Shown here in pieces: positions 17,813-64,000 of a stretch of 64,000 nt of DNA (the first letter of the stretch is position 1; the number at the start of each line of letters is the position of its first letter). Under the pieces are notes generated by a model, which saw only the letters and a list, made by a program, of their open reading frames with translations, was not told the DNA's origin and ran no database searches. The translations under genes were made by a program, and so were the position numbers. Origin of the DNA: Corallococcus sp. AB011P (GTDB taxonomy: Bacteria > Myxococcota > Myxococcia > Myxococcales > Myxococcaceae); the NCBI RefSeq assembly GCF_003611605.1, contig NZ_RAVX01000011.1:132811-196810 (forward strand), read 5' to 3'.

Positions 17813-17813
17813 G

Positions 17814-21336: not shown

Positions 21337-21460
21337 TCCGCCGGGTATTCATAGACCCTGATCGGGTTTGGACAGACACCTCAAAATCTCACAACATGTC
21401 TGTCTTCATGTTTTCAACCTGATAGATCGCCCTTTCCTCTCGCTGCGCCAGGAAGGTGCG

Positions 21461-40976: not shown

Positions 40977-41073
40977 GTGCCGGTCTCTACCACCCGCCCC
41001 GCCACCCGGTCAGCACTTCCTCCAATCCATTGGCGGAATACCAACGCAGTGGCACTGCCCTCCAGGCCCGTCC

Positions 41074-43470
41074 ATGGCCGGATCCACCCGCCCTCCGTAT
41101 GCTGGCCGGCTGGAGGCGCCCATGGATCCGTTGTGGGGGGAGACGCTGAGGCGTCTGGATGCGCTGCTCGTCCAGGTGTGTGACCTGGAGGAGGCCCGCG
41201 CGTCGAAGCTCCGGGGGGAACAGGAAGCGGGCTGGGATGCCGTGCGCACCACCGTGCGCCCCTCCACCGCGGAGCTCGCCTTCAGCTCGGCGCTCGCGGA
41301 GACACCGCTCCTGGGGACTTCGCCTCCCCTTCCCTTCGCCCGCCTGCGGGCTTCGCTTCGCGTGGACACCGTGGAGGAGGAGGCGTTGCTGCTCCTGCTC
41401 GCGACGTGGCTGGAGCCTCGGTATTCGCGCCTGTTCGCCGTGCTCCAGGACGAGACCGCGCAGGGCTGGAACGTGGAGCGGTTGCTGCTCACCGTCCTGG
41501 GACGTACGCCTGCTCGCGCGCAGCGGTTGCTGGCGTCACTGACCGACAGCGGCCTCCTGGTGGGCGGTGGATTGTTGCAGACGGGCGCCGGTGCTTTTCC
41601 TCCCATGCTCCGGCCCGTGGACCTGGCTCCGGAGGTCCGCGAGGCCCTGCTGGAGTTGCCCCGTCCGTCCGTGATGGGTGAGCTTTCTTTGGAATGGCAT
41701 GGACCGGAGGTGCTGCCTTCCTCCTCGCGCGGGACATTCGCCGTCGTGCATGGCGAGGGCGAACGGCTGGGCGTGGCGCTGGGACTCGCTGGCGAAGCCG
41801 GTGTGCCGCTGGTCGTCGCTCGTTGGGCGGGGGCTCCAGAGCCGGTTCCCATGGCCCGGGCCCTTTGGCGTCTGGCGTCCGTGCGCGGCGCGCTGTTGGC
41901 CGTGGACATGTCCGGTGCTGAGCCGGGGCTGGCTCTCTCCGTCACGGAGACGCTGTCCGGGCTGTGCCAGCGGTTTGGCGGGCAGGCCCTGGTGCTCGCG
42001 GACTCCGCGCAGCCTGTCGCCGTGCCGCACCATGAGGCTCCCGCTCTGGGCTTCGTGCAGCGGCGGACCCTGTGGATGGAGGAGGCCCGGGCTCGGGGAC
42101 TGTCATTGACGGAGGCGGAGGCGGGACGGCTGGCGTCTGGCTTTCGGGGCGGGCTTCAGGAGATCCGCCGCGTGTTCGACTCGGCTCCGGGCGGGGGTGC
42201 GGAGGCGCTTCGTGCCGCTGGCTCGCGGCTCGTCCAGGTGCCCTTGCGACATGGCTACCGGCTGGAGGCGTCGCGGACGTTCGCGGAGCTCGTGGTGCGT
42301 GACACCACTCGCGCGGCCTTGGAGCGTTTGCTGTTCTACGTGGCGCAGCGCGACCGCGTCGCCGAGGAGCGGGGCCTGTCTCGCCGCTTCCGGCTGCACA
42401 CCGGCCCGGTGGCGCTGTTCTCCGGACGCTCCGGCACCGGCAAGACCCTGGCCGCGGAGGTCATCGCCCATGCGGTGGGCCGGCCGCTGTACGTCATCGA
42501 CCTGTCCCGGCTCGTCAGCAAGTACGTGGGCGAGACGGAGAAGAACATCGACGAGGTGCTGTCCCACGGCGAGCGCTCCGGCGCCGTGCTGTTCTTCGAC
42601 GAGGCGGACTCGCTGTTCTCCGCGCGCACGGAGGTCAGCAACGCCAATGATCGCTTCGCCAACCTGGAGGTCGGCTTCCTCCTCCAGCGCATCGAACGCC
42701 ATGACGGGCTGATCATCCTCGCCACCAATCTTCAGACGGCCATCGACGAAGCGTTCCTGCGCCGCTTCCACGCGCGCATCGAGTTCCCCTTCCCCGAGGT
42801 CGAGGAGCGCCGCCGCATCTGGGAGCTGATGCTTCCGGAGGGCGTTCCTCGCTTGGGGACGCTCGACCTGGCGGGCCTGGCGCAGCGGCATCGGCTGGCG
42901 GGCGGTGACATCCGCAACGCCGCGCTCAAGGCCATCTTCCTCGCGGAACAGGCCGGTGCCCCGCTGGCCCAGGAGCACCTGGAGCGCGCCGTCGCGCTGG
43001 AGTTGTATGAGCTGGGCCGGCTCTCGCGGCGTCCGGAGGCGGATGCTCCCTCGGATGCGGGCACACGCTTGCGGCGCGTGGCGGAAGTGTTCCAGGAGGC
43101 ACTGGATTCGCAGCTCAGACAACACTTCCTCAAGGAGGTCCACATCCTCCACGGCTCTCCCACCCGGGAGGCGCTCGCGGGGAAGCGGCCCGCTGTGTCG
43201 CTCGCGCTCTACCGGCTGGCGGTCACCCAGAACGGTGCGCTGCGGCTGGGGCTCATCGTCTCCGCGTGGTCCCACCGCGCGGAGGAGGAACATGAGCTGC
43301 TCGGCGTGCTGCATGGGCTGCTCTCACGTGGACTCCCGCACGAGCTGGATGGTCGCAAGCTCACACCTCGCGTCCAGGAGAGTTATGACTTCGACCTGCT
43401 CCACCGCTTCTGGAGCAGTCATGGACATCCCATCCGGGCCTCGCTGGTCCTCGATGTGGAGATGACCTAG
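41074..43470 (+). CDS. AAA+ ATPase with a large N-terminal domain and a C-terminal classic AAA module (Afp15/Pvc15-like by architecture)
   Basis: Walker A GRSGTGKT, Walker B VLFFDEAD, sensor/arginine finger region (ILATNLQTAIDEAFLRRFHARIEF). A start at 41074 or 41122 is equally plausible. Confidence 0.75.
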   Translation: MAGSTRPPYAGRLEAPMDPLWGETLRRLDALLVQVCDLEEARASKLRGEQEAGWDAVRTTVRPSTAELAFSSALAETPLLGTSPPLPFARLRASLRVDTVEEEALLLLLATWLEPRYSRLFAVLQDETAQGWNVERLLLTVLGRTPARAQRLLASLTDSGLLVGGGLLQTGAGAFPPMLRPVDLAPEVREALLELPRPSVMGELSLEWHGPEVLPSSSRGTFAVVHGEGERLGVALGLAGEAGVPLVVARWAGAPEPVPMARALWRLASVRGALLAVDMSGAEPGLALSVTETLSGLCQRFGGQALVLADSAQPVAVPHHEAPALGFVQRRTLWMEEARARGLSLTEAEAGRLASGFRGGLQEIRRVFDSAPGGGAEALRAAGSRLVQVPLRHGYRLEASRTFAELVVRDTTRAALERLLFYVAQRDRVAEERGLSRRFRLHTGPVALFSGRSGTGKTLAAEVIAHAVGRPLYVIDLSRLVSKYVGETEKNIDEVLSHGERSGAVLFFDEADSLFSARTEVSNANDRFANLEVGFLLQRIERHDGLIILATNLQTAIDEAFLRRFHARIEFPFPEVEERRRIWELMLPEGVPRLGTLDLAGLAQRHRLAGGDIRNAALKAIFLAEQAGAPLAQEHLERAVALELYELGRLSRRPEADAPSDAGTRLRRVAEVFQEALDSQLRQHFLKEVHILHGSPTREALAGKRPAVSLALYRLAVTQNGALRLGLIVSAWSHRAEEEHELLGVLHGLLSRGLPHELDGRKLTPRVQESYDFDLLHRFWSSHGHPIRASLVLDVEMT

Positions 43471-43501
43471 CGTCCCTAGCACTGATGGTGCGGGGGGGAC
43501 C

Positions 43502-46500
43502 GTGCGCATCCGTGACCAGGGCCCGAAGGCCTCCGCCAAGGCCATGCTCCGGAAGAGCTCCGGGCGCACTCCCTCGTCCTCCGCGGCCCTTCCCCGTGCA
43601 CCGGGTGTCGTTCCCCGGGGCCCCTCCTCGTCCAATCCCGCACGTGAGCTGGCGGCACGGCTCGCGTCACTGAAGGGCGCGGCGCCTGCCCTCCATGGGC
43701 CCGTGCTTCGCGATGCCGCGCGCGACCTGGAGCGCCGCTGGAGCGACCCGGCGTGGCGCACGCTGGGCGGTCCGCGCTCGCACCTCTTCGAGCCGTGCCC
43801 GGTCCACCCGCCGGAGGTCGCGCTGCTCTCCACGCCCGGCGCCATCGAGGCGGAGCTGGGCATCCACGGACTCTCACCCCAGCCGAACACCGGGCTCGCG
43901 CAGGCGGCTGGCGCGTCCCAGCCCGCGACCCTCGCGCAGCAGGAGGAGGACGCTCGACGGCGTGATGCGGCACGCATGGCCGTCCTGCCTCCGGGCTCCG
44001 CTGAACAGCTCGGAGACACCGCCGCTCGGCTCGCCGAGGCCCGTGCTTCAGACCTCGCACCCGCTGCGGACACTGAAGAGGCGGAAGCGGCGGGACTTGG
44101 GGGCAGCACTTCTCCTGCGCCCGAGGACATCGCGGCGACCACCGTCGATGCGCCCAGCGCGGGCGGCGAACTGGCAACGCCGGATCAAGCTCCCGCGCCC
44201 GCATCCATCCCCACGGGGACGGCTCCCGGCGGCATGGACGACGCCGCGCGCATCGACACGCTGGTGACCGCACTGTCCAGCGAGGGCGATGTCCACATCG
44301 TCGTCCGTCAGGCATCCCCTGGCACAGGGCCCCGGGAGCCTCCTTCCATCCAGACGGATGCCACGGTCGACACGGGCCTCCCCGAAGCGCGCCCGATGGT
44401 GCCCGCACCTCCGGCCGAGATGGACTGGCAGAAGCAACTGGCCGCGGCCCACGCGCAGGGCGTCCAGGGCATCAAGCACGGTCTCGAAACCGCGCCGGAT
44501 CCAACGGGCGCCGTTGCGGCGGTGGAGCCCCCTGCCCGCCTTCCCGCTCCGCCTCCTGCTCCGGCCGCACCTGTCACGGCAGGGCCCATCCCCACTGCCC
44601 CGGTGATGGGCACGGACGCGGATCCGGTCGCCGCATGGAAGGGCCGCATCGCCAGCAGCACTGCGCGGGTCCCGGAGCCCCAGCTTCCTCCGGCGCCCCG
44701 CTACACGTTCAAGATCATCCAGGCCGCCGTGGACCCCAACGCGGTCCGCGCCGCGCGCCTCAAGCAACTGGAGGACGAAGGCAAGAAGGCCATCACCCCG
44801 GCGAAGCAGCCGAAGGACCTTCCGACCATCCCGGACGACCCCACCGGCAAGGCCTCCTCCCTGGTGGATGCGAAGTGCGAACGGAAGCTGGAGGTCAAGG
44901 ACGCCAGGCTCCCCGACCTGCTGAAGAGCCCGCTGGGCCATGTGCCGGAGATTGGCGCGCAGCTCATGCGCGACGACGGCGGGCACACGCTCATCAAGGG
45001 CCCGCTCGGCGACATCGTCTACAAGCCCGGCGGCCCCAAGCCCACCGACCCGGAGAAGCTCAAGGACTGGACGCGCCTCCAGAAGAAGATCACCGCCGAG
45101 GCCGACAAGCAGAAGAAGGCGAAGGTCCAGCCCAAGGAACCCGCGAAGGGCATCACCGTCCTCGAACAGGCCGCTCCCGCGCCCATCAACGTCCCCGACT
45201 TCGCTCGCGTGGACATTGGCGACGTGCTGGCGCGGCTGCTCGCCGCTCCGGACAAGTACGCGGACGCCTCCGTCCAGAAGGCCCGCGAGGCCTATGTCCC
45301 GGGCGGCCTGGATGCGTCCTGGGGCGTGCCGCTCATCGCCGCTGAACGGCCCATCTTCGCCGCGGAGCTCCAGCGCGTCGCGGACGCCGCGCAGATCAAG
45401 AAGGCGGACCTGGACGCGAAGGTGGAGGCCCGCCGCAAGCAACTGGTGGACTCGCACGCCGCCACCACCGGCTCGCTCAGCAAGGCCCACGAGGAGGCGA
45501 AGAAGAGTCTGGAGGAGGGCGGCAAGTCCTTCGCCGACGCCCTGTCGCGCATGCGCGCCTCGCTCGACGCGCAGTCCGAGGCCAAGGCCGCCGCCATCAA
45601 GGGCGGCGTCGACCTGACCGAGGCCCGACGCAAGCGCGACGCGCTCATCGCGGCCGTGGACACCAAGGTGAGCAACTGGGTCGTCCGGTACGACCAGAAC
45701 GGCAAGCGCTTCAAGGAAGCCTTCGCGAAGGCCGCGACCGACCAGATGCACGCCTACGAGCTCGCCGCGCTCCAGGACGAGTGGGAGCTCAAGAAGGACG
45801 CCGGCGATGATCCGGTGAAGCTCAAGGCGGCCACGGAGGCGTACCGCCCCACCAAGAAGTGGCTGGACGACCGCCGCAAGGAGATTGGCGCTGTCGTCGC
45901 GAAGGCGAAGCGCGACATCGACCAGAGCGTGGAGCGCTACCAGCAGGAGCTGCGCGACGCCGGCAAGGAGGCCCGGGAGGTCATCCGCGACTGGCATGCG
46001 AAGCAGATCGGCTACGAGCGCGGATTCTGGGACCGGCTGCTCGGGTGGATCATCGACTGGCTGGACGTCGCCCACGACGAGAGCCGCGCGTGGGAGGCCG
46101 CTCGCGCGGCGGAGAACAAGACGTCGTTGGATCAGAACATGCTGTTCCTCGCGGAGGTGCGCCTGCGCCAGGGCGAGGAGCTGGACGCGGAGACCATCAA
46201 GGGCAACCACGCTCTCAGCGAGGAGCAGCAGGCCATCCTGCTCTCCTACTACGGCAAGGGTGGCAAGGACGCGGTGCAGGCGCTCGCGGAGGGCCTTGCC
46301 GTGCGCATCATCGGCCAGCGCCGCAAGCCGCTGATGGAGGCCCTGGAGAAGGAGCTGCTCGCGTCCACCGACCTGGAGCGGTTGAAGGTCGTCGTCGACC
46401 AGCAGGAGCCCCTCTTCAGCAACCGCGCCCGCAACATCTCCCTCAAGGTCTGGGAGGGCGTGGACCAGTGGGGCACGGACGAGAAGAAGATCTTCGACGC

Positions 46501-49500
46501 GCTCGCCAACCTCAACCCGCTGCAGGGCCACTACATCGAGCTCCTCTACCAGCAGGAGCACGACGAGAACCTGCGCGAGCGGCTCAAGAGCGAGCTGGAC
46601 GACTTCTTCAGCACCACCACGCATGACTGGGACAGGGCGGAAGCCCTGCTCTCCGGCAACGCCGCCAAGGCCGCCGCCGTCGAGCTGAACGACGCCATGG
46701 AGGGCACCTTCCTCGGGACCGGCTGGGGCACGGACGAGGACGCCATCTTCAACCTGCTTCGCGGCAAGACGCCGGAGCAGATCGAAGTCATCAAGAAGGC
46801 CTACCAGCAGAAATACGGCAAGGACCTCGTCGCCCAGATGGACGACGAGCTGCGCAGCGGCGCGCGCACGACGCACGACGCGGACGAGATGCACGCCCTG
46901 GTGGAGGGCCGCACCGAGGACGCGCGCGCCATCGAGATGGACCGCGCCATGCGCGGCGGGTGGTTCTTTGGCCTGGGCACCGACCGCAAGGCCATGGAGG
47001 GCGTCTACGACCGCATCCGCAAGGAGACGGAAGCAGACGCGCAGCAGTACGGCTGGGATACCAAGACGTTCCGCGCGGAGCTGCTCAAGCGCAACCAGGC
47101 CATCGACGCGTCGTATGAGCAGCAATACGGCACGGATTGGACCCAGCGCACCGCGGGCGAGAGCGCGCTCAGCGCCGCGTTCCACGATGAGATGAAGGGC
47201 GAGGACCTCAAGCTCATCGAGGGCCTGCGCGACGACAAGGGACTCCAGGTGGATGCCGCGCGCATCCGCATCGAGCACACCAGCATCCTCTACGCGGACG
47301 ACAAGATCATCCGCGACGCCATGTCCGCGCAGGGCAAGCGGCAGATCGCCGACGCGCGCCGCGACGGATACCTGGACGTCCAGGAGCGGCTGGACATCGA
47401 GCGCAGCCTGGACGAGGCGAAGGTCAAACCCGCCAGCGAGGGCCCGCTCACGGAGGAGGACCGCCGCAAGGGCCGCATCAGCGAGCTGGAGTTCCTGGAG
47501 AAGTGGAGCCCGGAGAAGGTCCAGGCCCGCGTCACGAAGGAACGCAAGGAGGTGGACGACAAGGCGAAGGTCCAGGCCCAGGCTGACGCCCAGGCGAACA
47601 TGAAGGCGCTGGCGGCCGAGTACGACAGCGCCTACGTGGAAGGCACGCACCTGCAGGCGGGCTTCGAGCAGGCCGTCCTGATGGACACCTCCGGCGCGGA
47701 CCGCGACGCCGTCGCGGCGATGCTGCAGAAGGGCTACCTCACCGACGCCGAAATCGTTCAGTACGCCGTGCAGGGCGTAGGCACGGACGAGGACGCGCTC
47801 AAGGAGGTCTTCGCAGGAAAGACAAAGGCGGAGATTCAAGCCATGGCCGAGGAGTGGGCCAAGGACCACCCCGCCGATCCTGGTGACACGCGCACGCCCT
47901 TCGAGCGCTTCCGCGATCGCATCGACGAGGAGCTGAGCGGGCGCGAAGAGTTCGACATCATGGACATGGTGGACTACGGCGAGCCCGTCACGCCCCGGGA
48001 GAAGGCGGACCGGGCCTGGCGCCGGGTGCACTTCGAGGCGCGCTCCACCAACAGCATGGCGTCGTCGGAGTACCAGCTGGTGCTGGACCAGGCGTCCGCG
48101 CTCGACGCAGAGGTGAGCGCGCTGGAGCTGCACGAGCGGATGCGCCCCAAGCCCGGGGACAAGAACTACACCGTCGACGGGCTGCGCAAGTGGCAGGACG
48201 ACTGGGAGAAGAAGTCCGAGCGCGTGCAGCGCCAGGGGGACTACGCGGACGAGGCGGTGCAGATGCACCGCGAGCAGGTGGACTTCATCACCGACCGGCT
48301 GGTGACCATCCTCTCCGTGGTGGTGATGGCGGTGGTGGTCATCATCGGCGTCATCGTCAGCATCTTCTTCCCGCCCGCGGGCGCGGGGTTCTGGGCCGCG
48401 TTCGGCGCGTTCATGGCCAGCACGCCGGTGCTGGTGGGCACGGCGGTGGCGACGGCCGCGGTGACGATGCTGACCAAGGCCGCCCTGAAGGGCAGCGCCT
48501 ACGGCTGGGAGGAGGCCGCCACCGACGCGGGCGTGGGCGCCGTGGATGCGCTCGCCTCCGTGGCCACCGCGGGCATGGGCACGAAGCTGCTCAAGCTGGG
48601 GTTCCTGGCGCGCATGGCGGAGGAAGGCGGCGTGCTGGCGCGCATGACGGCGCACGGCCTGGCCCAGGGCGCGGAAGGCCTGGCGCAGGCGGTGCCCTCC
48701 GCGTTCCTGGGCAACGTCCTCAACGACGAGAACTACAAGGGCGGCAACGCGCTCTTCAACGTGCTGGCCGGCACCGCGATGCAGGCGGCGCCGGGCGCGG
48801 TGATGGCCGGAGGGCTGGGCGCGCTGGGCGGCATCTCCAAGCCCCACGTGCCACCTCGAACCCAGGACCTGCTCCACTTCCGGGGCACGCCCAAGGAGCG
48901 GCTGACCCTCTTCAAGAAGTGGAAGGCGGAGAACCCCGCCGGGGACATGAAGGAGTTCCTGCGCGAGTTCGACGACGGCCTGCTCAAGCAGATGTCGGGC
49001 GACTTCGACCGGCAGCAGCTCCAGCGCGCGATGCGCAAGGAGTTGCTCGAGCACATCCCGCCCGCGCAGCGCAAAGCGTTCGCGAACACGCCCATCGAGA
49101 TGCTCTCCGAGGGTGACTTCGAGTCGCTCACCGGCAGCAAGTCCGCGCAGGCCGTCACGATGTTCCGGCGCGGCAAGCCCACCATCATCATCAAGGCGGG
49201 CGCGGACCTGTCCGACCTGGGTGAGGAGGGCCTGCACCTGCTCCAGCGCCACGACAAGGCGACGCGCGAGCTGGTCAGGTCGCTGGACGAAACGGCGCTG
49301 CGACACTGGGACCAGCTGCCCATCGAGAAGCAGTTCGAGCTCTATCGCAAGAAGCTGCGCCTGGAGATCGCGGCTCAGGAGTCGCTGCTCACGTCGCTGG
49401 AGGGCAAGCGCGGCGTGACCCTGGAGCCCGCGGAGGCCACGCGCCGGATCCGGCAGGGAGAGAAGACGCTGGCGAACCTGCGCCAGCGGATGAAGGAGGT

Positions 49501-51643: not shown

Positions 51644-51655
51644 GGAAGAGAAGCC

Positions 51656-52965: not shown

Positions 52966-54479
52966 TGCACTCCCCTGCCCTCGTCGCGCGGCCGGAGGTT
53001 TCCTTCGAGGCGATGGACCGGGTGCTGTCCGCGTTGGGCTGGTTCCTCCAGTCCGAAAGCCAGACGCCTCCGCTCATCCCCGGCGAGCCGGAGTCCGCGG
53101 TGTATGTGAAGCGCGCGACGGACCTGGCGCTCCACTACACGTTCAACCCGGTGCTCCGGCTGCGGGTGCTCGAGTTCTCCGGACCTGACGCGGTGGGGGA
53201 ATGGGTGGCCGTGCGCAAGGTGGTGCCGGTGCTGGAGGCCCCGGCGCTCGCGGCGCTGCTGACGTCGTCGGAGACGCGGGAGGTGCTGCTGGGGTTGCTG
53301 GCCACGGAGGCGCTGCGGGAGCGCTCGTCGATGGAGCGCGTGGCGGCGCTGCGCTTCCATCCGGAGTTCAGCGTGTCGCGGACCGCGGAGCGCGTGCTGG
53401 CGTCGCTGGTGCCGGACGGGACGGAGGAGGCGTTCGCGCGGCTGAAGGCGGAGAAGGAGGCGCATCCGGATCGCTCCGTGCTGTTCGCGCACCTGCCGGG
53501 GGAGGAGCAGCGGCGGCAGGTGTTGCGCTGGCTCATCCAGGATCAGGCGGCGTCGAATCCGGACATCGACGCGGTGCTGCGCTCCGCGCTGGTGGACACG
53601 GACGCGGAGGTGCGGGTGACGGCGGTGATGGCGGCGGCCCGGCTCCAGGCGAGGGAGGTGCTGCCAGCGCTGCGCGCGGCCCGGATGCCCACGTCGACAC
53701 GGGAGGGCGCGGACCCGAGGGACCGGCAGTTCTATTCGAACCTGCGGGACCTGGTGGCCCAGGTGCTCGCGGGCCGGCCGCTGCCTCCGGAGGGTTCACC
53801 GAAGCGTGAGCGGATGGCTCCGCTCTTGCGCGCACTGTCGGGTCCCGCGGACGTGCGGGACGATCCCACGCTGCTGCTGCATGCGCTCACGACGCCGGTG
53901 GATCCGGGGCCACGTTCGGTGGGACTGCCCGAAGCGGTGGTGGAGCGGGAAGGCACATACCGGCTGCGCCGCTCCGGGTTGGAGGCGCGCTGGGTGCCTC
54001 CGGTGGAGCACTGGCTGGGGACGGGGCCGACGCTGCGGCGCGTGACGTCACCGGGGTTCTTCGTCGCTCGGGTGCCCGTGAGCCGGGCCGCGGCGGCCTG
54101 GGCGATGGCGGCTTCGCAGGGGCCGGTGGGTACGGCGGGGCCGGACGCGGAGGAGCCGCTGCCCTGCACTCTCGTGGAGGCGGAGCAGGTGTGCTCGGCG
54201 CTGTCGCGCATTGAGGGCGTGGAGCTGCGGCTGCCTTCCAGCGAGGAATGGGAGATGGCTGCCCGCGGGCCGGACGGGCGGCTGTTCCCGTGGGGCAATT
54301 CGATGCGGGACGACGGGGCTTCACGGGCTTCGCCCTGGGGCGTGGAGAAGCTCGTGGCTTCGCTTCCGCAGTGGGCGCGGGAAGGCCTGCTGTGCGGGGG
54401 ACGGGAACAGCCGCTGTGCGCTTCGCGCCGCGAGGTGGCGGCGGCGGTGGGCGCCGTCCGATGGGTGCTGGCCTCCTGA
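52965..54479 (+). CDS. HEAT-repeat protein with a C-terminal formylglycine-generating-enzyme (FGE/SUMF1-type) domain
   Basis: PBS-lyase/HEAT-like repeats (VRVTAVMAAARLQAREVLPAL). C-terminal RLPSSEEWEMAARGPDGRLFPWGN, matching the FGE-sulfatase domain core. Confidence 0.6.
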   Translation: MHSPALVARPEVSFEAMDRVLSALGWFLQSESQTPPLIPGEPESAVYVKRATDLALHYTFNPVLRLRVLEFSGPDAVGEWVAVRKVVPVLEAPALAALLTSSETREVLLGLLATEALRERSSMERVAALRFHPEFSVSRTAERVLASLVPDGTEEAFARLKAEKEAHPDRSVLFAHLPGEEQRRQVLRWLIQDQAASNPDIDAVLRSALVDTDAEVRVTAVMAAARLQAREVLPALRAARMPTSTREGADPRDRQFYSNLRDLVAQVLAGRPLPPEGSPKRERMAPLLRALSGPADVRDDPTLLLHALTTPVDPGPRSVGLPEAVVEREGTYRLRRSGLEARWVPPVEHWLGTGPTLRRVTSPGFFVARVPVSRAAAAWAMAASQGPVGTAGPDAEEPLPCTLVEAEQVCSALSRIEGVELRLPSSEEWEMAARGPDGRLFPWGNSMRDDGASRASPWGVEKLVASLPQWAREGLLCGGREQPLCASRREVAAAVGAVRWVLAS

Positions 54480-54549
54480 AGCTGACTGGCAGCTCGAGGA
54501 CGCCAGGGCCGCCGCTCACGAAGCTGGGCCCCCTGGGAAGTCGGGGAGC

Positions 54550-54880
54550 TTCAGGCTGGCAGCCACCTCCGGGGACGAAGCTCCTCAAACCTGTCCGACT
54601 GTCGGACAGGTTTCCCGAGGCCGCAACCGGCAGGGCCCCCTCACCCCAAGTCGAGGAGTTTCAGGCTGGCAGCCACCTCCGGGGACGAAGCTCCTCAAAC
54701 CTGTCCGACTGTCGGACAGGTTTCCCGAGGCCGCAACCGGCAGGGCCCCCTCACCCCAAGTCGAGGAGTTTCAGGCTGGCAGCCACCTCCGGGGACGAAG
54801 CTCCTCAAACCTGTCCGACTGTCGGACAGGTTTCCCGCGGCCGCAGCCGGCAGGGCCCCCTCCCCCTCGGTGCCACCGAC
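54550..54880. repeat. Three tandem copies of a 110-bp unit, each containing the 27-bp palindrome AAACCTGTCCGACTGTCGGACAGGTTT (at 54587, 54697, 54807)
   Basis: Seen directly. Unit: TTCAGGCTGGCAGCCACCTCCGGGGACGAAGCTCCTCAAACCTGTCCGACTGTCGGACAGGTTTCCCGAGGCCGCAACCGGCAGGGCCCCCTCACCCCAAGTCGAGGAGT. Copies 1 and 2 are identical; copy 3 carries a few substitutions. Confidence 0.9.
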
Positions 54881-54909
54881 CACCGGTCTCGTCCGTCGAG
54901 TCGGTCGCG

Positions 54910-55131
54910 CTACTTCTTCGGCATCCGGATGCTGGGGTTCGCCGCGACCCGGGGCGCGCTCTTCGCCTTGAAGCTGCCACCGGCCGCGGCCTTCATCGTG
55001 GGCCCCTTGGCCGCGGCTCCCAGCTGGGCCCTGGCTGTGTCCGTCTTGGGCTGCTGCGACGGCGCGATGGCCTTGTTCATGGCGGGCTTGCGGTCGGGCG
55101 TCTTCCGCGTCTGGGGCGTCATTGTCTTCAT
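54910..55131 (-). CDS. Small basic Lys/Ala/Pro-rich protein (73 aa), last gene of the coupled minus-strand operon
   Basis: ATG overlaps the stop of the upstream gene (ATGA). High GC3 codon usage. Disordered, basic composition. Confidence 0.45.
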   Translation of the reverse strand: MKTMTPQTRKTPDRKPAMNKAIAPSQQPKTDTARAQLGAAAKGPTMKAAAGGSFKAKSAPRVAANPSIRMPKK

Positions 55132-55859
55132 GGATTGCCTCCTGGAATGCGGCCGGCGGGGATGCCTTCCAGCTTGAGCGATGCGCCGGGCTGGGCTGGG
55201 ACTTCCAGTTCGACCAGGCCTCCCGTGCCGGTCACGTGGGTGTCCGGGCCGATCTCCAGACGGCAGCCCACCGCCGGGCGCCCCGTGTGGTCCTGGGCCA
55301 GGAGCCTGCGCCGGTCGTCGCTCACCACCACCGACGGTCTCCTCAGCGCGACCTGCGCCTGCGCGATGAGCACGCAGCGCTGGCCCCTCACGCTCGCGCG
55401 GACCTGGGCCCGAACCCGGGCGATTCCGGGGGCCTTGCCTTCGGGAGGCCTCGCGAGGAGCGTGGCACTGGACGCGGGTGGACCTGGGAGCACCGCGCCT
55501 TCCCATACGGCTTCGAACCCTTCGTCCAGTCCCACCGCCGCGAGCGACAACGGCAGGCGGATGGGCTCCGCGCCTACCCAGAGTTCGTCCGGCGCGACGA
55601 TGGCCACTTCGGGATCCAGTTGGACGTCCGCGATCCATGACCAGCGCTCGGCAAGCAGGTCCGCGAGCCAGCCGGCTTCTTCTGGCGACATGCGTACCAG
55701 GGCCTTCTCCACGTGCGCCGGGTCCACCAGCCGTTGGAGCGCCGCGGCGCCGTCCTGGAACCGAGCGTTCTCCAACAGGCCGTCGAGCTGGCCCGGGAGG
55801 TGTTTCGAGAGGGAACGCACCAGGTGGCCCAATCGCTGTCTTGGAGGAAGTGCGCTCAT
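55128..55859 (-). CDS. Hypothetical protein (243 aa) of the phage-tail-like operon
   Basis: ATGA coupling at both ends. Coding-like composition. No recognised domain. Confidence 0.55.
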   Translation of the reverse strand: MSALPPRQRLGHLVRSLSKHLPGQLDGLLENARFQDGAAALQRLVDPAHVEKALVRMSPEEAGWLADLLAERWSWIADVQLDPEVAIVAPDELWVGAEPIRLPLSLAAVGLDEGFEAVWEGAVLPGPPASSATLLARPPEGKAPGIARVRAQVRASVRGQRCVLIAQAQVALRRPSVVVSDDRRRLLAQDHTGRPAVGCRLEIGPDTHVTGTGGLVELEVPAQPGASLKLEGIPAGRIPGGNP

Positions 55860-57067
55860 CCTCGCCTCCTCCACAGCGAGCGGCCGGTCATCCGGCGTTG
55901 CAGTCGCTGTTCTGCTTGCTGGAGCGCTTCGGAGTCCTTCGCCGTGAGGCGGCGGCCGTTCACGAAGAAGGCCCGTGTAATGGTTTCCAGCTCGTATCCC
56001 GGTGCTTCTTCCCACACGGGTTCTTCATCCGGGGCTTCGGCTCGTGGCGGTGCTTCGACTCGCGGTGGAGGAAGCAACGTCTTCACTTCGATGTGCACCG
56101 GCCTTGGTGCGGTGTGCTTCGTGCCCCGTGCTGGGGGGAGCATGGACTCTCCCCGTTCCTCCGATTGGGAAGGACGCGGAGTCCGTGATTCAGGTCTGTC
56201 GTGACGACGTGGCTCGAGTTCTTCCTGGAACGGTGGTGCTTTTCGGGTGCCCGGTGCCGGCGGTCGGGCAAGGGCTCGGGGTGAGCTTCTCCTCCGTGGC
56301 GATGCCTGTGCGGACGTCTCCCTTGGCTCCACTGGGGAATCCTGTGATGGCGCTTGTGTGGTGGCGCGCGCGACACGATGGCGACGTGTTGGGGACTCCG
56401 GGACCCGTGCGCGGATCCGTGGGGGTTCGGTGTTCTTCTCCACGGCGGGTCCAGGCACCCTGCTCCTTCGCGGACTTGGAGCCTTCACGCGTGCTTCGAC
56501 AACGGGAGGGACTTCAGTGGCCTTCTGGCTTTGAGGTTCGGGATGGCCGCCTTGTTGTGAAGGGACCTCCCGGGCTTGGGTGCGAGCACGAGGGGGTCGT
56601 GGCTCCGCGACCTCCGACGGCAGCTCTGGGGCGCTGGGAACAATGGGGAGCGCGAGTGTGGGAGGCGGTTGCCCGTCCTGGATCCGGGTCACGGGTTCGA
56701 CCGACGGCCGTGATTCCCCTGGCTGCGCCGACGTACCGCCAGGCCGGGGAACGCGACGGCGGATGGGGGCGATGGGGTCCGTTACGGCCGGGGCTTCGAC
56801 CCGCACAGGGCGCTTGAGCACGGGTGGCGTCACGTCCTCTGGCTCGGTGAACCCCATGGACCTGGGGCCCGACGGGGGCGACGCGGTCTTCACCGCTCGG
56901 CCTGACTCCCCTTCCCGCCTCCGCGCACCCGGCGTTGGCAGGGACGGTGGCAGCGGTGGATCCACCTTGAAGTCTCCGCGCTCTCCCCGCTCCAGGGGAT
57001 GGAGCACCCGGTCCAGCTCCGTGAGCAGCGCGGCCACCGCGAAGAGGTCGTCTCTTGCTTCGCTCAT
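55856..57067 (-). CDS. Proline-rich, largely disordered protein (403 aa) with a short conserved-looking C-terminal module
   Basis: ATGA coupling at both ends (start 57067 overlaps the stop of the 720-aa gene). Long P/E/R-rich region. C-terminal ETITRAFFVNGRRLTAKDSEALQQAEQRL. Confidence 0.5.
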   Translation of the reverse strand: MSEARDDLFAVAALLTELDRVLHPLERGERGDFKVDPPLPPSLPTPGARRREGESGRAVKTASPPSGPRSMGFTEPEDVTPPVLKRPVRVEAPAVTDPIAPIRRRVPRPGGTSAQPGESRPSVEPVTRIQDGQPPPTLALPIVPSAPELPSEVAEPRPPRARTQAREVPSQQGGHPEPQSQKATEVPPVVEARVKAPSPRRSRVPGPAVEKNTEPPRIRARVPESPTRRHRVARATTQAPSQDSPVEPRETSAQASPRRRSSPRALARPPAPGTRKAPPFQEELEPRRHDRPESRTPRPSQSEERGESMLPPARGTKHTAPRPVHIEVKTLLPPPRVEAPPRAEAPDEEPVWEEAPGYELETITRAFFVNGRRLTAKDSEALQQAEQRLQRRMTGRSLWRRRG

Positions 57068-59226: not shown

Positions 59227-60833
59227 GGGCCGCTTCCCTTCTTCGGCGGGGTCGGTGTCGGCGTGGACGTGTCAGCCGCGGGGGGCTGCGGACTCGGCGG
59301 GCGCTCGGACGCGCCAGGACCTCCGAAGCCGATCGCCAGCGAACGCCCTCCCCGGCGCTGGGAGTGCTTCGTGGACAGCATGCCCTCCAGGATCTCCTTC
59401 TGTTCCTCCACGTGCTCCTTCGACTGATCCAGCACGTCCACCAGCGTGGAGCGGCCTCGCTCGGCGGCGGCCTTCAGCTCATCTGGCGTGCGCCCCACCG
59501 CCTTCACGAACCTCTCGGGCGCCTTCTCCACCGCGTTCACGAACTTGTCCGCCTGCTTCTGGGCCGTCGTCTTCAGGTTGCCCCAGGCGTCCTTCACCTC
59601 GTCCGTGTTCGCCTCCAGCACCTGCGCCGCCTGGCTCTCCTCCAGGGCCTTCTTCACGTCCTGGAGCGTGAGGTCTCCCGACGCCAGCTCCATCGCGGCG
59701 GACAGGCCCAGCAGCTCCCAGAGCATCGCGGCCTTCGCCAGGTTGGGCCCCGCCGCCAGCAGGCAGATGCCTCCCACGTAGCCGCCCGGGGGCCGGTCCG
59801 TCGCCGTGAGGAAGGCCTGCTTCAACCCCGCCACGCCGCCCGTCGTGGACACCGGCAGCGCGTACATGCCCGCGGACTTGAGCGCGTTCAGCAGGTCGAT
59901 GATGGCCTGCACCGCCTGCGCCAGCTTCATCAACACCTGCACCTTGTCCTGCATCGCGGCGGCGAGGCTCCGCAGGAGCGTCGCCAGGTTGTCCACCGAC
60001 AGGAGCAGCGCCCTGAGCGCCTCCGGGAGGATGAGCAGCTTCTCCAGGTCCGGGAACAGGTCGCGCATGCGCGCGGACTTCCAATCCGGCTTCACCGGCC
60101 GGCCACGCGCCCGGCTGCGGCGCGGATCCAACGCGCCCTTGGGGTACTTCTCGAACGCCTTCTTGAACGCGCTGATGTTGAGCAGCTTGCCCAGCAGGTA
60201 CAGCGCCTGCCGGAGCGCATCCAGCGACGGCGCCGCCATCACGATGAACACCGCCTGCACCGGCGCGCCATCCGTCACCGTCGGGCGCGAGTCGTCCCCC
60301 GGATCATCGAAGGACGCGACGAACCGCCCCGCCCAGCGCGCGAAGCCGTCCGGCGTCACCGGCGGGCGCTCCAGCGCGAAGCCCGCCTTGAAGTCCTTGG
60401 GGATGTTCGGGATGAAGCCCGTCTCCGCCAGGTTCGTCTCCGTGGGACTGATGCCCGGCGCGTCCGCGTAGAGGTACGCACCCGCGTTGAGCAGGTCGTT
60501 GATGATGTCCTTGAGCAGCTCGTAGGCCGCGAGGATGAGCGCCCGGAACGGATCCGGCAGCCCCAGGAGGATGGCCGCCAGCGCCTGGAGCAGCGCCTGC
60601 ACGAACTGGAGCACCGCGATGATGATCTGCAGCGGCGGCTTGACGATGCCCACCAGCTGCTCCAGCCCCGGCGGCACGCCGATCAGCAGCGGCCGCCACG
60701 CAGGCCCGGCCCCGGCGTCAGCGCCGGTGGTGTCCGTGCCTTCCGCATCCTCCAGCGCCTTCGCCAGCTCCTCGCAGCAGACCTCCAGCGCGCCGTGGAG
60801 CTCAGCGATAGCGGCGTCGTTGAACTCGGCCAC
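59223..60833 (-). CDS. Hypothetical protein (536 aa), possible baseplate component
   Basis: GTG start preceded by GGGAGGA. Contains a hydrophobic helix (IIIAVLQFVQALLQALAAILLGL). No recognised domain. Confidence 0.55.
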   Translation of the reverse strand: MAEFNDAAIAELHGALEVCCEELAKALEDAEGTDTTGADAGAGPAWRPLLIGVPPGLEQLVGIVKPPLQIIIAVLQFVQALLQALAAILLGLPDPFRALILAAYELLKDIINDLLNAGAYLYADAPGISPTETNLAETGFIPNIPKDFKAGFALERPPVTPDGFARWAGRFVASFDDPGDDSRPTVTDGAPVQAVFIVMAAPSLDALRQALYLLGKLLNISAFKKAFEKYPKGALDPRRSRARGRPVKPDWKSARMRDLFPDLEKLLILPEALRALLLSVDNLATLLRSLAAAMQDKVQVLMKLAQAVQAIIDLLNALKSAGMYALPVSTTGGVAGLKQAFLTATDRPPGGYVGGICLLAAGPNLAKAAMLWELLGLSAAMELASGDLTLQDVKKALEESQAAQVLEANTDEVKDAWGNLKTTAQKQADKFVNAVEKAPERFVKAVGRTPDELKAAAERGRSTLVDVLDQSKEHVEEQKEILEGMLSTKHSQRRGGRSLAIGFGGPGASERPPSPQPPAADTSTPTPTPPKKGSGP

Positions 60834-60996
60834 GCGCGTCCTCCCGGGTGCGTTGTTCCAGCTCCATCAGCTTCTCCAGCCGCTCGGCGTCCTGGGCCAC
60901 GCCCACCGCCGCCGCCTGGAGCAGCAGGGCCTTCACCTCCTCCAGCCGCTCGCGCAGCACCGAAGCTTCCAATGGCTTCCAGCCGGGCTCCTTCAT
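60802..60996 (-). CDS. Small coiled-coil protein (64 aa) between the spike and the 536-aa gene
   Basis: ATG 4 nt after the spike stop. High GC3. Overlaps the next gene's start by about 30 nt in another frame. Confidence 0.4.
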   Translation of the reverse strand: MKEPGWKPLEASVLRERLEEVKALLLQAAAVGVAQDAERLEKLMELEQRTREDARGRVQRRRYR

Positions 60997-61000
60997 CGCG

Positions 61001-62188
61001 TCACCCCACCGGCATGCGCTTGACGAAGCCGAAGTAGGACCAGTCCAGCATCGGTGTCATCGCCGCCCAGACATCCAGGAGCGGCCCGTACGCGGCCACC
61101 GTCAGCGGGTTCACCGCCTTGAGGATCTGCGCCAGCATCGTGAAGTGGATGGCCAGCCCGTCCCCCAGCACCATGGGCGAGATGGCGGAGAGGCCTCCCA
61201 CCTGGCACACGCCCAGCATCGTGTTGATGGACACGTTGCCCGCCAGCGCGTCAATGGAGACGGCGTTGAGCGACGGTCCCGGCAGGTCCGGCATCGCCGC
61301 GGCCACCTTCACCGCCTTGCCCGCTGCCAGGTTCACGTTGCCCCCGGACGTGACGCCAAAGCCCCCTACCGCCGTCTCCTGCGACGCGCCGGACACGATG
61401 CGCGTGTGGCTGCCCTGGATGCGGTCCTCTCGCGGACCGCCGACGATCTCCTTCAGGCCGCTGCCGCCCACCGTGCGCGAGTAGCCCGCCACGTCCACCT
61501 TCTCCGTCAGCGACCCCGTCACGTGCAGCGACACGTCCCCGCCCACGTCACGGGTGTGGCTGCCGTCCACCGTCTCGTCCTGGTTGCCCGCCACCTCCAG
61601 GTGGTCGTCGCCGTCCACCTCCGCGGAGCGGTTGCCCTCGTTCACCGTGCGCTCGTTGCTGATGAGCCGGTCGAGGCCTTCCGCGGACAGGATGACGCGG
61701 TTGCCCTGCCGGTCGTGGATCTCCACGCGTGCTGTCTCCGGCCGGTCGTCCAGGACGATGTAGTGGCCCGTGGCGGACTTGAGCATCCGCACGCCCGGCA
61801 CCGCGGACTGGGGCGGATAGTCGTGCTTGGGAATCTCACTGACGTCCGGGGCCACGCGCGCGGTGGAGTCCGGCTGGCCCAGGTCCGCGAGCGCGGGCTG
61901 CCCCCACCACATGCCGCTCCAGATGGGCTGGGTCAGGTCTCCGCCCTCGAACTCCACCCAGACACCCGCGCCCACGTCCGGCACCACGAAGAGGCCCTGA
62001 TCCGGCCCCGCGTACGGCGTGCACGGCATGGCCCAGCCCGTGGCCACGTCTCCCATCAGGCGCGGCACCACGCACTGGATGCGCCCCAGGTTGAGGGGAT
62101 CCGAGACGTTCGTCACGTAGCCCCGGTACTTGCCGAAGTAGCGGCTCTCCGTGCGTTCGATGAGCTGCTGCAGCAGTTGTTCGATCAT
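61001..62188 (-). CDS. Phage baseplate spike protein (gpV/gp5-like OB-fold N-terminus plus beta-helical needle), equivalent to an Afp8/VgrG-like component
   Basis: N-terminus matches the Phage_base_V pattern (YRGYVTNVSDPLNLGRIQCVVPRLMGD...GWAMPCTPYAGPDQGLFVVPDVGAGVWVEFEGGDLTQPIWSG). Followed by repetitive beta-helix segments (HTRDVGGDVSLHVTG..., GSHTRIVSG...). Confidence 0.75.
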   Translation of the reverse strand: MIEQLLQQLIERTESRYFGKYRGYVTNVSDPLNLGRIQCVVPRLMGDVATGWAMPCTPYAGPDQGLFVVPDVGAGVWVEFEGGDLTQPIWSGMWWGQPALADLGQPDSTARVAPDVSEIPKHDYPPQSAVPGVRMLKSATGHYIVLDDRPETARVEIHDRQGNRVILSAEGLDRLISNERTVNEGNRSAEVDGDDHLEVAGNQDETVDGSHTRDVGGDVSLHVTGSLTEKVDVAGYSRTVGGSGLKEIVGGPREDRIQGSHTRIVSGASQETAVGGFGVTSGGNVNLAAGKAVKVAAAMPDLPGPSLNAVSIDALAGNVSINTMLGVCQVGGLSAISPMVLGDGLAIHFTMLAQILKAVNPLTVAAYGPLLDVWAAMTPMLDWSYFGFVKRMPVG

Positions 62189-62394
62189 CGCGCGCTCCCC
62201 AGGTCGTCGTCCTCGTCGTACTGGCGCACGCCAGAGACGTCCGACAGGTTGATGTAGACGGGTGTGGCGCCATCCGGCCCGGTGAGGTGGACGACGTCGT
62301 CGATGAGCTCCACCACCAGGCCCACGTACACCTGGCCCAGCGTGGTGAAGAGGTAGCAGCGCTGCCCCATGCTGGCTTCGAGCAGCTTGCGCAT
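62185..62394 (-). CDS. Small protein (69 aa) upstream of the spike gene
   Basis: ATGA overlap with both neighbours. Sequence MRKLLEASMGQRCYLFTTLGQVYVGLVVELIDDVVHLTGPDGATPVYINL, predicted beta-rich. Confidence 0.5.
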   Translation of the reverse strand: MRKLLEASMGQRCYLFTTLGQVYVGLVVELIDDVVHLTGPDGATPVYINLSDVSGVRQYDEDDDLGSAR

Positions 62395-62735
62395 CACTCC
62401 TCCAGCTTCTGCACCAGCCGCGTGGCCAGCTTCACGCGCGTGTCCACCCAGACGCCCACGTCGCGCTGGCGCTCGGAGGCGAGCCTGCGGCGCGCGGCGC
62501 GCACCAGGTCCTGGAGCGTCACGGGCACCGCGGGCACCGGCGGCAGGCGGGAGATGCGCACGTCCAGCGCCCGGAGCACCGTGGTGTCCAGGTCCAGCTT
62601 CGCGCGCGTGCCGGCCAGGTTCTCCAGCGCCGCGGCCTTCGCGTCGGGCGCGTCCGGCGTGGCGGAGAGCGTGACTTCGGGCAGCGCGGTGCGCTGGAGG
62701 GCGACGCGGCCACTGAGGGCGAAGGGGTCGGGCAT
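62394..62735 (-). CDS. Hypothetical protein (113 aa) in the tail-like operon
   Basis: RBS GCGAGGA before the ATG at 62735. Its stop overlaps the next ATG. Confidence 0.5.
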   Translation of the reverse strand: MPDPFALSGRVALQRTALPEVTLSATPDAPDAKAAALENLAGTRAKLDLDTTVLRALDVRISRLPPVPAVPVTLQDLVRAARRRLASERQRDVGVWVDTRVKLATRLVQKLEE

Positions 62736-62766
62736 GGGGGTGTCCTCGCGAAAGGGGCTTCCAGCG

Positions 62767-64000
62767 CTACGGGTTGAGCTCCACCACTGCGTCGGCTTCC
62801 TGGACGTGCACGCCGGAGGTGGTCGCGTTGCCGACGGCGGCCACGCGCGAGCCGCCCAGGATGATGACGGAGTGGGCATACGGATCCGGCGGCGGCTCCG
62901 GCGGGAGGGGCCGGATGCCCGCGTCCTGCACCGGCTTGGGGCCGGTGGTGTCGCCCGTGTAGAACGAGTCCGCCAGCACCTCGTGCAGCACGGAGACGTT
63001 GAGGATGCTCTCCTTCACCGTGGACGCCGCCGAGTCGATGCCGAGCACGCTCTTGTCCACCAGCTGGAGCGCCTTCTTCGGGTCGCCCTCCGCCGCGGCC
63101 AGCACGGAGCGCACCTGGCCCTGCACGTCCTCGGGCCTGTCCGCGTGCATCGCGACGCGGTCCACCAGGTCCCGCAGCGCGCTCGTGGGTGAGTCGTCCT
63201 TCGTCACCGCGATGCCGTAGAGCGTCCGGGCCGCCATGGTCACGTCCATGGTCGCGGGCAGCTTCGAGCGGACGTCTTGCATGGTGGGGAGGTCCAGCAC
63301 GCCCTTGGAAGGGAACTCCGGCCCGACCTGGGGCGGGAGGGGAACGGGTTGGGTGACGAGCTCCGCGAGCAGCGTGGAGAAGGCGTCGCTCGCCACGTCG
63401 CGGCGGCGCTGGAGGCCGCCCAGGAGCAGCTCCTGGTCCAGGGGCACGCCCAGGGTGGAGCCTCCGCCCACGGGAATCTGGAGCGTGAGCGTGTCCGAGG
63501 GCATCAGCCACTGGGGGCGCAGCACCGGGCGGGGCGGCGTCACCGTCTCCGCGCCCAGCACCACGTTGCCGGTGAAGGTCACCGGCGCGCGCTCCACGCG
63601 CAGGACGACGACGTTCACCGCGTCCAGGCACTGGCACCGGTTGCCGCTGAAGACGGTGGAGTCCGCGCGGCGCAGGTACACCGCGCCCACGGCGCCCTCG
63701 CTGCGCAGCTCGTTGCCGGACACGGCGGCGGAGATGACCGCGCCGCCGTTGCCCAGCAGGAGCAGCGCCGGGCCTCGCGCGGTGATGTCGTTGCCCTCCA
63801 CCTGCACGCCCCGCTTCTCCTTCACCACCGGGCTCGGGAGGATGGGGATGGGCTTGACGAGGAAGTCCACCAGCGCGGGCTGCACCAGCGCCGTCGTCGC
63901 CGAGAGGTAGCGCGACGCCGCCGCGCTGGCGCTCAGGCTGGGCGCGGAGTCCGCGGCCGTCACCGTGAGCGCGCGGTTGAGCACCGGCCCCGAGGCGAAC
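62767..64000 (-). CDS. C-terminal part of a large protein with parallel beta-helix-type repeats (tail-fibre/receptor-binding-like); the N-terminus lies outside the window
   Basis: Frame open to the window end. Repeats such as GNDITARGPALLLLGNGGAVISAAVSGNELRSEGAVGAVYLRRADSTVFSGNRCQC. Coding-like codon usage. Confidence 0.55.
   Translation of the reverse strand, partial: FASGPVLNRALTVTAADSAPSLSASAAASRYLSATTALVQPALVDFLVKPIPILPSPVVKEKRGVQVEGNDITARGPALLLLGNGGAVISAAVSGNELRSEGAVGAVYLRRADSTVFSGNRCQCLDAVNVVVLRVERAPVTFTGNVVLGAETVTPPRPVLRPQWLMPSDTLTLQIPVGGGSTLGVPLDQELLLGGLQRRRDVASDAFSTLLAELVTQPVPLPPQVGPEFPSKGVLDLPTMQDVRSKLPATMDVTMAARTLYGIAVTKDDSPTSALRDLVDRVAMHADRPEDVQGQVRSVLAAAEGDPKKALQLVDKSVLGIDSAASTVKESILNVSVLHEVLADSFYTGDTTGPKPVQDAGIRPLPPEPPPDPYAHSVIILGGSRVAAVGNATTSGVHVQEADAVVELNP

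Follow-up and report, generated by a model that had tools for sequence, protein, structure and literature searches.

Based on an analysis of a 64,000-nucleotide stretch of the Corallococcus sp. AB011P genome (contig NZ_RAVX01000011.1, positions 132,811 to 196,810; hereafter the window), we propose that its positions 41,122–64,000 make up the distal part of a contractile injection system (CIS) locus of roughly 60 kb and contain two units, a reading to which we give a probability of about 0.6. The unit on the + strand encodes an AAA+ ATPase, a giant protein of 2713 amino acids (aa) and three accessory proteins; the unit on the − strand is a chain of ten tightly coupled genes encoding the C-terminus of a tail fibre, p113, p69, the spike, p64, p536, p720, p403, p243 and p73. 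This reading is carried by the gene content, by homology, by the fusion of the ATPase to a cap domain and by the linkage of the two units. The locus is a real contractile injection system, and it is set apart by the ATPase-cap fusion, a spike that is split off from the hub and displaced, a set of uncharacterised core genes and a giant effector candidate.

The contractile machinery

Genes were called by G+C content at third codon positions (GC3), the window being about 70% G+C. GC3 is 0.85–0.97 across the open reading frames (ORFs) of the locus, which marks them as coding, and all of them are kept in other genomes; the ORFs on which an original prediction had been built, from the letters of the window alone, are real and coding. 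That prediction counted ten translationally coupled genes on the − strand, and the count is correct, with ATGA or 1-nt overlaps at six junctions (p113/p69, p69/spike, p536/p720, p720/p403, p403/p243 and p243/p73). The genes of this chain are as follows.

62767–64000, − strand: C-terminal 410 aa of the tail fibre (DUF6519/eBAP5, beta-helix), running off the window; from orthologue comparison
62394–62735, − strand: p113, a small protein 3' of the fibre; position kept in all loci
62185–62394, − strand: p69, a small beta-rich protein 5' of the spike; 92–99% identity within the genus
61001–62188, − strand: spike, 395 aa, with an OB domain, a gp5-type beta-helix and a C-terminal domain; Phage_base_V 8.7e-24
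60802–60996, − strand: p64, a small helical protein between the spike and p536; conserved, including in loci L019 and L023
59223–60833, − strand: p536, helical; homologous 536-aa gene in L023, 53% identity
57064–59226, − strand: p720, a lineage-specific core protein; confident predicted fold
55856–57067, − strand: p403, Pro/Arg/Glu-rich; ATGA overlaps at both ends
55128–55859, − strand: p243, a conserved protein; 79–87% identity across Corallococcus
54910–55131, − strand: p73, a small Lys-rich protein and the last gene of the operon; ATGA overlap with p243

With the truncated fibre ORF as the query, 13 loci were obtained (12 Corallococcus genomes and 1 Myxococcaceae metagenome-assembled genome, MAG). 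The nearest locus, that of C. coralloides DSM 2259 (93–96% aa identity), was obtained separately. In close relatives, at 93–96% aa identity, the − strand chain forms the final ten genes of a 22-gene operon. The sheath, tube and baseplate genes were read in such orthologous loci, beyond the 64-kb end of the window, and we infer their presence in this genome; it had been predicted that the tube, sheath and other core genes, if present, would lie beyond 64 kb, and in the orthologous Corallococcus loci they are indeed found upstream. The operon there begins with a 652-aa protein, the sheath, two tube proteins, 291- and 72-aa proteins, a CIS_tube initiator, a LysM/gpX-like protein and the hub, and continues with gp25, Baseplate_J, an 842-aa protein, a Tail_P2_I-Kelch adaptor and the DUF6519 fibre, after which come p113, p69, the spike and the remaining genes down to p73.

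The sheath is a 773-aa Phage_sheath_1/1C protein in the C. macrosporus locus L016 and is also present in L017 and L024. Two inner-tube genes of the Phage_T4_gp19 type and one CIS_tube gene, the tube initiator, were found in L016, and homologues of the latter's 242-aa product are named “CIS tube protein” by NCBI. The LysM/gpX-like protein (92 aa) has a weak Phage_tail_X match and the 395-aa hub candidate a weak Phage_GPD match, a family also recorded in L024. A GPW_gp25 gene is present in the orthologous operons; the 1256-aa Baseplate_J protein scores 23.7 bits (cut-off 21.1), and the 1213-aa Tail_P2_I-Kelch adaptor scores 30.1 bits for Tail_P2_I (cut-off 20.6), with the fibre gene directly downstream. 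The core families that the original prediction proposed to search for are therefore present, Phage_sheath_1, Phage_T4_gp19, Baseplate_J and GPW_gp25 in the orthologous loci and Phage_base_V in the window, except for PAAR, which gave no match in the operon scans.

Within the window, the fibre part has no Pfam match. The full-length orthologue of C. coralloides DSM 2259 is 2537 aa long, with a DUF6519 N-terminus (33.1 bits, cut-off 22.4, just the first ~50 profile positions being aligned) and Beta_helix, and the fibre is 74–93% identical within the genus. The predicted beta-helix fibre-like protein is a fibre, but just its final 410 aa, out of ~2537, lie in the window. The gpV/gp5-like spike of the original prediction is supported by its Phage_base_V match and by spike matches in the PDB and PHROG searches: In the former, the alignment is confined to residues 375–577, the C-terminal half, of the fused AlgoCIS VgrG (7aef_q), and in the latter, the match is to baseplate hub/lysozyme (4.8e-14). 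Its Gp5_trimer_C and Gp5_C matches both lie slightly under the Pfam curated cut-offs. The spike has no gp27-like hub part; hub and spike are separate genes ~20 kb apart, the spike gene being located after the fibre. Identity of the spike to its Rhodospirillaceae and Micromonospora orthologues is 58–65%; a search for its exact sequence gave no match.

The same gene order, small genes included, is repeated in a Rhodospirillaceae MAG and in Micromonospora pattaloongensis. Since the order is shared with these organisms, the spike, p64 and the p536-type gene belong to the core of a conserved lineage and are not variable cargo. The original prediction pointed out that the gene order differs from that of the usual extracellular CIS (eCIS) and Photorhabdus virulence cassettes (PVC). 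It does differ, but, as far as the compared sequences indicate, the unusual order is a conserved trait of a widespread lineage that includes Myxococcota, Alphaproteobacteria and Actinobacteria.

Several genes of the chain are less easily assigned. From its position, p113 is possibly a fibre chaperone; p69 is found in L019, L020 and L023 as well. Genes of 530–554 aa occupy the p536 position in L019, L020 and a metagenome contig in which both units run in one direction (the colinear contig). The size of p536 is near that of Afp14 (554 aa) and its PHROG tape-measure match is weak (1e-4); judged from size, helicity and this match, p536 is a candidate tape-measure-like protein. The p720 family comprises 66 cluster representatives among 1.84 billion proteins, and its predicted model is very confident (predicted local distance difference test, pLDDT, 92.4), with no convincing analogue among solved structures. 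The probably disordered p403 evolves fastest of the chain (43–64% identity within the genus), and a 417-aa gene takes its position in the colinear contig, as a 240-aa gene does for p243, a protein with no Pfam or PDB match. The terminal p73 is kept in 8 of the 8 Corallococcus loci that reach this point (57–89% identity). PHROGs gave no match for p113, p69, p64, p720, p403, p243, p73 or the fibre C-terminus. As a side observation, the C-terminus of p73 is conserved (...[IV]R[ML]PKK), and the 73-aa peptide is probably disordered.

The P2-like traits of the operon, namely a separate hub and spike, a gpX/LysM-like gene and the order W-J-I-fibre, could also be those of a degraded prophage tail or an R-type tailocin that delivers no toxin, and neither PAAR nor DUF4157 turned up in the window, which would fit such an origin. 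However, no capsid, portal, terminase, packaging, replication or lysis gene was found in the Pfam-scanned ORFs across the 64-kb window or in the called upstream-flank genes, the operon is intact and conserved across phyla, and CIS_tube, the Afp15-like ATPase and the Pvc16_N domain are marks of a CIS rather than of a phage or pyocin (PMC12210884). We regard the prophage or tailocin explanation as very improbable. Type VI secretion system (T6SS) families are likewise absent among the operon genes that were scanned with Pfam or have Pfam matches on record (ClpV and TssJLM were not sought elsewhere in the genome), and, in contrast to T6SS subtypes i–iii, the sheath of this lineage is of the Phage_sheath_1 type and not TssB/TssC.

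A CIS ATPase fused to a cap domain

The features of the + strand unit are the following.

41122–43470, + strand: CIS ATPase fused to a cap domain, 782 aa; Pfam AAA 1.2e-24, WHD variant PF22977
43057–43467, + strand: cap (tail-terminator, Pvc16_N/Cis16-like) domain of the ATPase, aa 646–782; from domain comparison
43502–51643, + strand: giant protein, 2713 aa; Annexin 1.2e-21, in 3 stretches
48278–48463, + strand: hydrophobic (transmembrane-like) segments of the giant protein, aa 1593–1654; Kyte-Doolittle peak 3.24
49595–51640, + strand: variable C-terminal region of the giant protein, aa ~2032–2713; D..EVK motif and C-terminal HETRH (HExxH)
51656–52183, + strand: p175, with zinc-ribbon-like CxxC pairs; L018 homologue 138 aa, 32% identity, E 1.4e-23
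52180–52965, + strand: p261, accessory gene; L018 homologue 254 aa, 38% identity, E 1.8e-42
52965–54479, + strand: p504, HEAT-repeat and partial FGE-sulfatase-like; FGE-sulfatase 6.3e-8, HEAT_2 weak

The ATPase ORF is open from 40975 (40975–43470, 831 codons), but ATG 41122 is the likely start because the closest database homologues, which are annotated as AAA ATPases by NCBI and UniRef, have the resulting length of 782 aa. The 830-aa AAA+ ATPase of the original prediction is an ATPase, probably of this shorter length. In a BLASTP comparison with Afp15 of pADAP, it showed 40% identity over 257 aa, covering the active AAA domain (E 2e-58); the pADAP match is an AAA ATPase that lies between a “contractile injection system tape measure protein” and a “DUF4255 domain-containing protein.” Comparison with 49 homologues shows its Walker A (GRSGTGKT), Walker B (FFDE), pore loop (KY[IV]GE) and RR fingers to be conserved or near-invariant. 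The AlphaFold2 model (pLDDT 85.8) consists of an N-terminal helical/winged-helix part, a degenerate D1-like domain, an active D2 AAA domain, a low-confidence linker and a C-terminal alpha/beta domain. The degenerate D1 carries GxGxR, and D1 of Pvc15 likewise has an Arg in place of the Walker A Lys (PMC11495950). Judged from this homology and from the layout of N-domain, degenerate D1 and active D2, the ATPase is a true relative of Afp15, in line with the predicted Afp15/Pvc15 type. A housekeeping ATPase of the CbbX/FtsH type is ruled out by homology to Afp15, by the cap domain and by the surroundings in the genome; neither this nor a lack of core homologues upstream, either of which would have spoken against a CIS, was found.

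The AAA module had been placed at the C-terminus of the protein, which does not hold, as ~140 aa with a cap-like domain follow it. Afp15 stops exactly at the start of the linker, and the ~147 aa that the Corallococcus ATPase has in addition show a cap fold. Among the operon genes scanned, there is no separate Pvc16_N (DUF4255) cap gene. This ATPase-cap fusion is the most distinctive feature of the locus, and the original prediction overlooked it. No description of a Cis15/Cis16 or Afp15/Afp16 fusion was found in the literature, although the coverage of the search was incomplete and its outcome is not proof of novelty. As to the undescribed variant that had been predicted, its fibre/adaptor type is already catalogued (PMC12923769).

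Linkage of the two units

Orthologues of the ATPase-cap protein (52–62% identity) occur in three arrangements. In two loci, the ATPase is divergent from the first gene of the operon and has no giant protein adjoining it; in the second arrangement, it is followed by a giant annexin protein and accessory genes. The third, that of the colinear metagenome contig, has everything in one direction: The fibre, 115, 66, the spike, 63, 530, 746, 417, 240 and the ATPase are followed by a 2895-aa annexin protein, 241 and a HEAT protein. The module of ATPase, giant protein and accessory genes is conserved at 61% identity, and in at least 6 further cases, ATPase orthologues appear to share contigs with P2_I adaptor or CIS_tube matches. 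Since ATPase-cap orthologues adjoin the operon or run colinear with it, the + strand unit belongs to the same system, and since a colinear version exists, the convergent layout in Corallococcus is a local inversion. The convergent arrangement can therefore not be the defining feature that it was taken for, given the colinear contig and the two loci in which the ATPase lies divergently at the operon's 5' end.

Taken by itself, the convergent arrangement with its 430-bp, repeat-bearing gap could also mean that the ATPase and the giant protein are an unrelated neighbour of the operon, such as a polymorphic toxin that stands alone and brings its own chaperone ATPase; several Corallococcus loci without a p504 homologue within ~2.3 kb 3' of the operon's last gene could be read in the same way. 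This explanation has, however, been largely refuted already by the ATPase orthologues that adjoin such operons in three arrangements in distant genomes, at 52–62% identity, and by the CIS cap domain and Afp15 homology of the ATPase itself, and we consider that it has almost no probability left.

The + strand module is flanked by superoxide dismutase and flavin reductase genes. An Rfam scan of 40–64 kb gave no match. The gap between the convergent units holds three tandem copies of a 110-bp unit (54538–54866; 97% match), and each unit contains the 27-nt palindrome AAACCTGTCCGACTGTCGGACAGGTTT, which also occurs at 13943–13969 and 14085–14111, again with no Rfam match. The repeat with its palindrome looks like a dispersed intergenic element of the repetitive extragenic palindrome or miniature inverted-repeat transposable element kind, and it is possibly a bidirectional terminator.

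The giant protein and its accessory genes

The 2713-aa protein and the three small genes predicted after the ATPase are confirmed as ORFs and are conserved. From N- to C-terminus, the giant protein has a Pro/Ala-rich stretch of ~375 aa, which is probably disordered, a coiled coil, annexin repeats, a hydrophobic hairpin and a variable C-terminal region. Its core (aa 379–2031) is conserved among homologues, which follow the ATPase in L018, L021 and the colinear contig. The C-terminal region is common to L018, which also shares all three accessory genes, and is replaced in L021, where the C-terminus of the homologue matches Ntox4 (29.1 bits, cut-off 25) and an eCIS_core/DUF4157 gene then follows. 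In the window's protein, a DUF6782 metallopeptidase match in the C-terminus reaches 21.6 bits, under the cut-off of 27, and the C-terminal 694 aa have no sequence match in the PDB. Downstream, the p175/p261 and p261/p504 junctions overlap; the Pfam matches of p175 are all weak zinc-ribbon ones, a 241-aa gene takes the p261 position in the colinear contig, and p504 homologues lie downstream of the giant protein in L018 and in that contig.

Two loci of this lineage have an ATPase with no giant protein next to it, so that the protein is accessory and not structural. Its conserved core, variable C-terminus and co-varying accessory genes make it a candidate polymorphic-toxin cargo, and annexin is among the putative effector domains enriched in eCIS (PMC8213781). 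A tape-measure function was also considered and is ruled out by the globular annexin repeats, the membrane helices, the swappable C-terminus and the missing protein in two loci.

A different role is suggested by the hydrophobic hairpin at aa 1593–1654 and the membrane-binding annexin repeats: The CIS would be real, but the giant protein would be the membrane anchor or firing adaptor of an intracellular CIS, comparable with CisA or with the anchors of haloarchaeal and thylakoid CIS. The disordered-like Pro/Ala-rich N-terminus followed by membrane helices recalls the layout of CisA, and the closest solved sheaths come from cytoplasmic or membrane-bound CIS. Such a role is nevertheless hard to reconcile with the two loci of the lineage that have no giant protein beside the ATPase, with the exchange of the C-terminus for an Ntox4 toxin domain in the L021 homologue and with the position of the protein, which is that of Afp18, after the ATPase and cap. 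A 2537-aa fibre and a Kelch-bearing adaptor, moreover, suggest binding to a target outside the cell. We consider the anchor role unlikely, and cargo of the CIS remains the role that we prefer for the giant protein.

Comparison with known systems

The lineage I eCIS, Afp of Serratia entomophila pADAP and PVC of Photorhabdus, share with the locus the contractile sheath and tube genes and a homologous ATPase. At its 3' end, Afp has the tape measure (554 aa), the ATPase, the DUF4255 cap, the small gene afp17 and the giant toxin Afp18; the colinear contig mirrors this end, with a p536-type gene ahead of the ATPase-cap gene and a giant protein at the Afp18 position. The canonical gene organisation of Afp/PVC (fused VgrG, PAAR, Afp11/Afp12 wedge and afp13 fibre) is, however, not matched. 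The ATPase and cap are one polypeptide in Corallococcus and separate genes in Afp; the hub and spike are split, with the spike after the fibre, whereas the canonical systems have a fused VgrG between afp7 and afp9; the adaptor is Tail_P2_I-Kelch instead of Afp12, the fibre is a 2537-aa DUF6519 protein and no PAAR gene is recognised. In addition, Corallococcus has the extra core genes p720, p403, p243 and p73, and no similarity between its p536 and Afp14 can be detected.

Among solved structures, the nearest sheaths come from the S. coelicolor CIS(Sc) (PDB 8bky, 9gtp, 9gts) and the haloarchaeal T6SS-like CIS (PDB 9ezm), and both the S. coelicolor CIS (PMC12237407) and the haloarchaeal system (PMC11566945) act from inside the cell. 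The Streptomyces CIS has a separate Cis16 gene directly 5' of the ATPase, no fibres and no tape-measure gene, and its intracellular firing is helped by CisA; the Corallococcus lineage, in contrast, has giant fibres and the fused cap. A giant fibre together with a Kelch-bearing adaptor points to a target outside the cell. As a separate observation, locus L022 of Streptomyces sp. HK10 encodes a 2194-aa protein (12303–18887; no recorded Pfam match) two genes 3' of its cap-ATPase pair and preceded by a 114-aa gene, a position reminiscent of that of the Corallococcus giant protein.

The nearest class by fibre is the eBAP5 (DUF6519)/Tail_P2_I class of eCIS, which has the same DUF6519-anchored fibre gene directly 3' of a Tail_P2_I adaptor. 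DUF6519 as eBAP5, with the Tail_P2_I fibre/adaptor type, has already been catalogued computationally by Levy and co-workers (PMC12923769). Their study covers fibres and baseplate adaptors, but does not deal with the displaced spike, the fusion of ATPase and cap or the genes that follow the fibre, and among the matches listed, Corallococcus appears there solely under eBAP3. A 2021 eCIS catalogue contains another CIS locus of C. coralloides DSM 2259 (CP003389, 3,522,183–3,558,527), while the locus of this strain that is orthologous to the window, at ~4.0 Mb, is absent from it among the matches listed. Because the catalogue lists a second, different locus in the closest relative, bacteria of the C. 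coralloides type probably carry two distinct injection systems.

With the phages P2 and Mu, the locus shares a separate hub (gpD/gp44-like) and spike (gpV/gp45-like), a gpX-like LysM protein and the order gp25(W)-J-I-fibre. Unlike these phages, it has no head or lysis genes, it has a CIS tube initiator, an ATPase and a cap domain, and its spike has moved 3' of the fibre.

Proposed mechanism

We suggest a plausible course of action for this system, in which the + strand unit would be the loading and effector module of the same CIS, inverted in Corallococcus. By means of its cap domain, the ATPase would sit as a hexamer on the distal, six-fold end of the tube and would thread the giant protein into the tube lumen, perhaps by way of that protein's long Pro/Ala-rich N-terminus. 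After release of the particle from the cell, which we infer, as we do the loading and cargo roles, the fibres would bind the target, and contraction of the sheath would expel the spike together with the cargo. The target membrane would be what the annexin repeats and the hydrophobic hairpin then act on, and the variable C-terminal domains, metallopeptidase-like in the window, would be the toxin. More tentatively, and with somewhat less than even confidence, we propose that the AAA+ motor stays in the particle permanently, the cap forming the six-fold terminator while a coaxial unfoldase ring feeds the ~2700-aa toxin into the lumen.

Several points weigh against the locus being a toxin-loading, extracellular system. 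The window ends at 64 kb, and the sheath, tube and baseplate were seen in related genomes and not in this one, for which they are presumed from the orthologous loci. The solved sheaths nearest to this one come from systems firing from within the cell, so that extracellular release is a tentative reading. Another protein, such as the 652-aa protein, p243 or p720, could be the real cap, and p536 has no sequence similarity to Afp14. As for the giant protein, no toxin domain in the window's version passes a curated threshold, its variable C-terminus was compared in three sequences and is swapped in one of the two homologues, and with its membrane helices and annexin repeats, it could be a membrane anchor.

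According to two reports (10.1101/2023.11.13.566157; PMC11495950), how eCIS cargo is loaded and what physical role the Afp15/Pvc15 ATPase has are still unsettled. If the permanent-motor proposal is true, the fusion would be a natural “trapped” version of the transient interaction of Afp15/Pvc15 with the cap, and it would reveal where and how eCIS cargo is loaded. The covalent ATPase-cap protein gives a testable model, with loading at the distal end of the tube and a motor that might be visible by cryo-electron microscopy. The locus also adds conserved core proteins of no assigned role, including p720 with its confident predicted fold, and a family of giant effector candidates with annexin repeats and membrane helices. 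Engineered eCIS are under development for protein delivery, for which a built-in means of loading very large cargo would have practical value. The host is a myxobacterium that is a predator and has a complex development; the system could be used in predation or, as in Streptomyces, in cell death.

Other observations in the window

At 27463–29199 (− strand), ~12 kb from the CIS module, lies the gene for a 578-aa protein with LysM and a T6SS_VgrG3-like_C domain (8.7e-53), which is probably peptidoglycan-binding or -degrading. The gene at 30860–33139 (− strand) encodes a 759-aa bacterial protein homologous to the major vault protein of eukaryotes, with Vault repeats and MVP_shoulder (4.8e-45). 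At 21362–23806 (+ strand), PKD/Big_9 and Kelch repeats are found in a large protein of secreted type, the coding strand of which is uncertain as high-GC3 ORFs on the − strand overlap it. The window opens with a chemosensory cluster (1–6892, + strand) comprising a CheA fragment, a methyl-accepting chemotaxis protein with a bacterial globin and PAS (a globin-coupled sensor), an ABC1 kinase-like protein and CheB.

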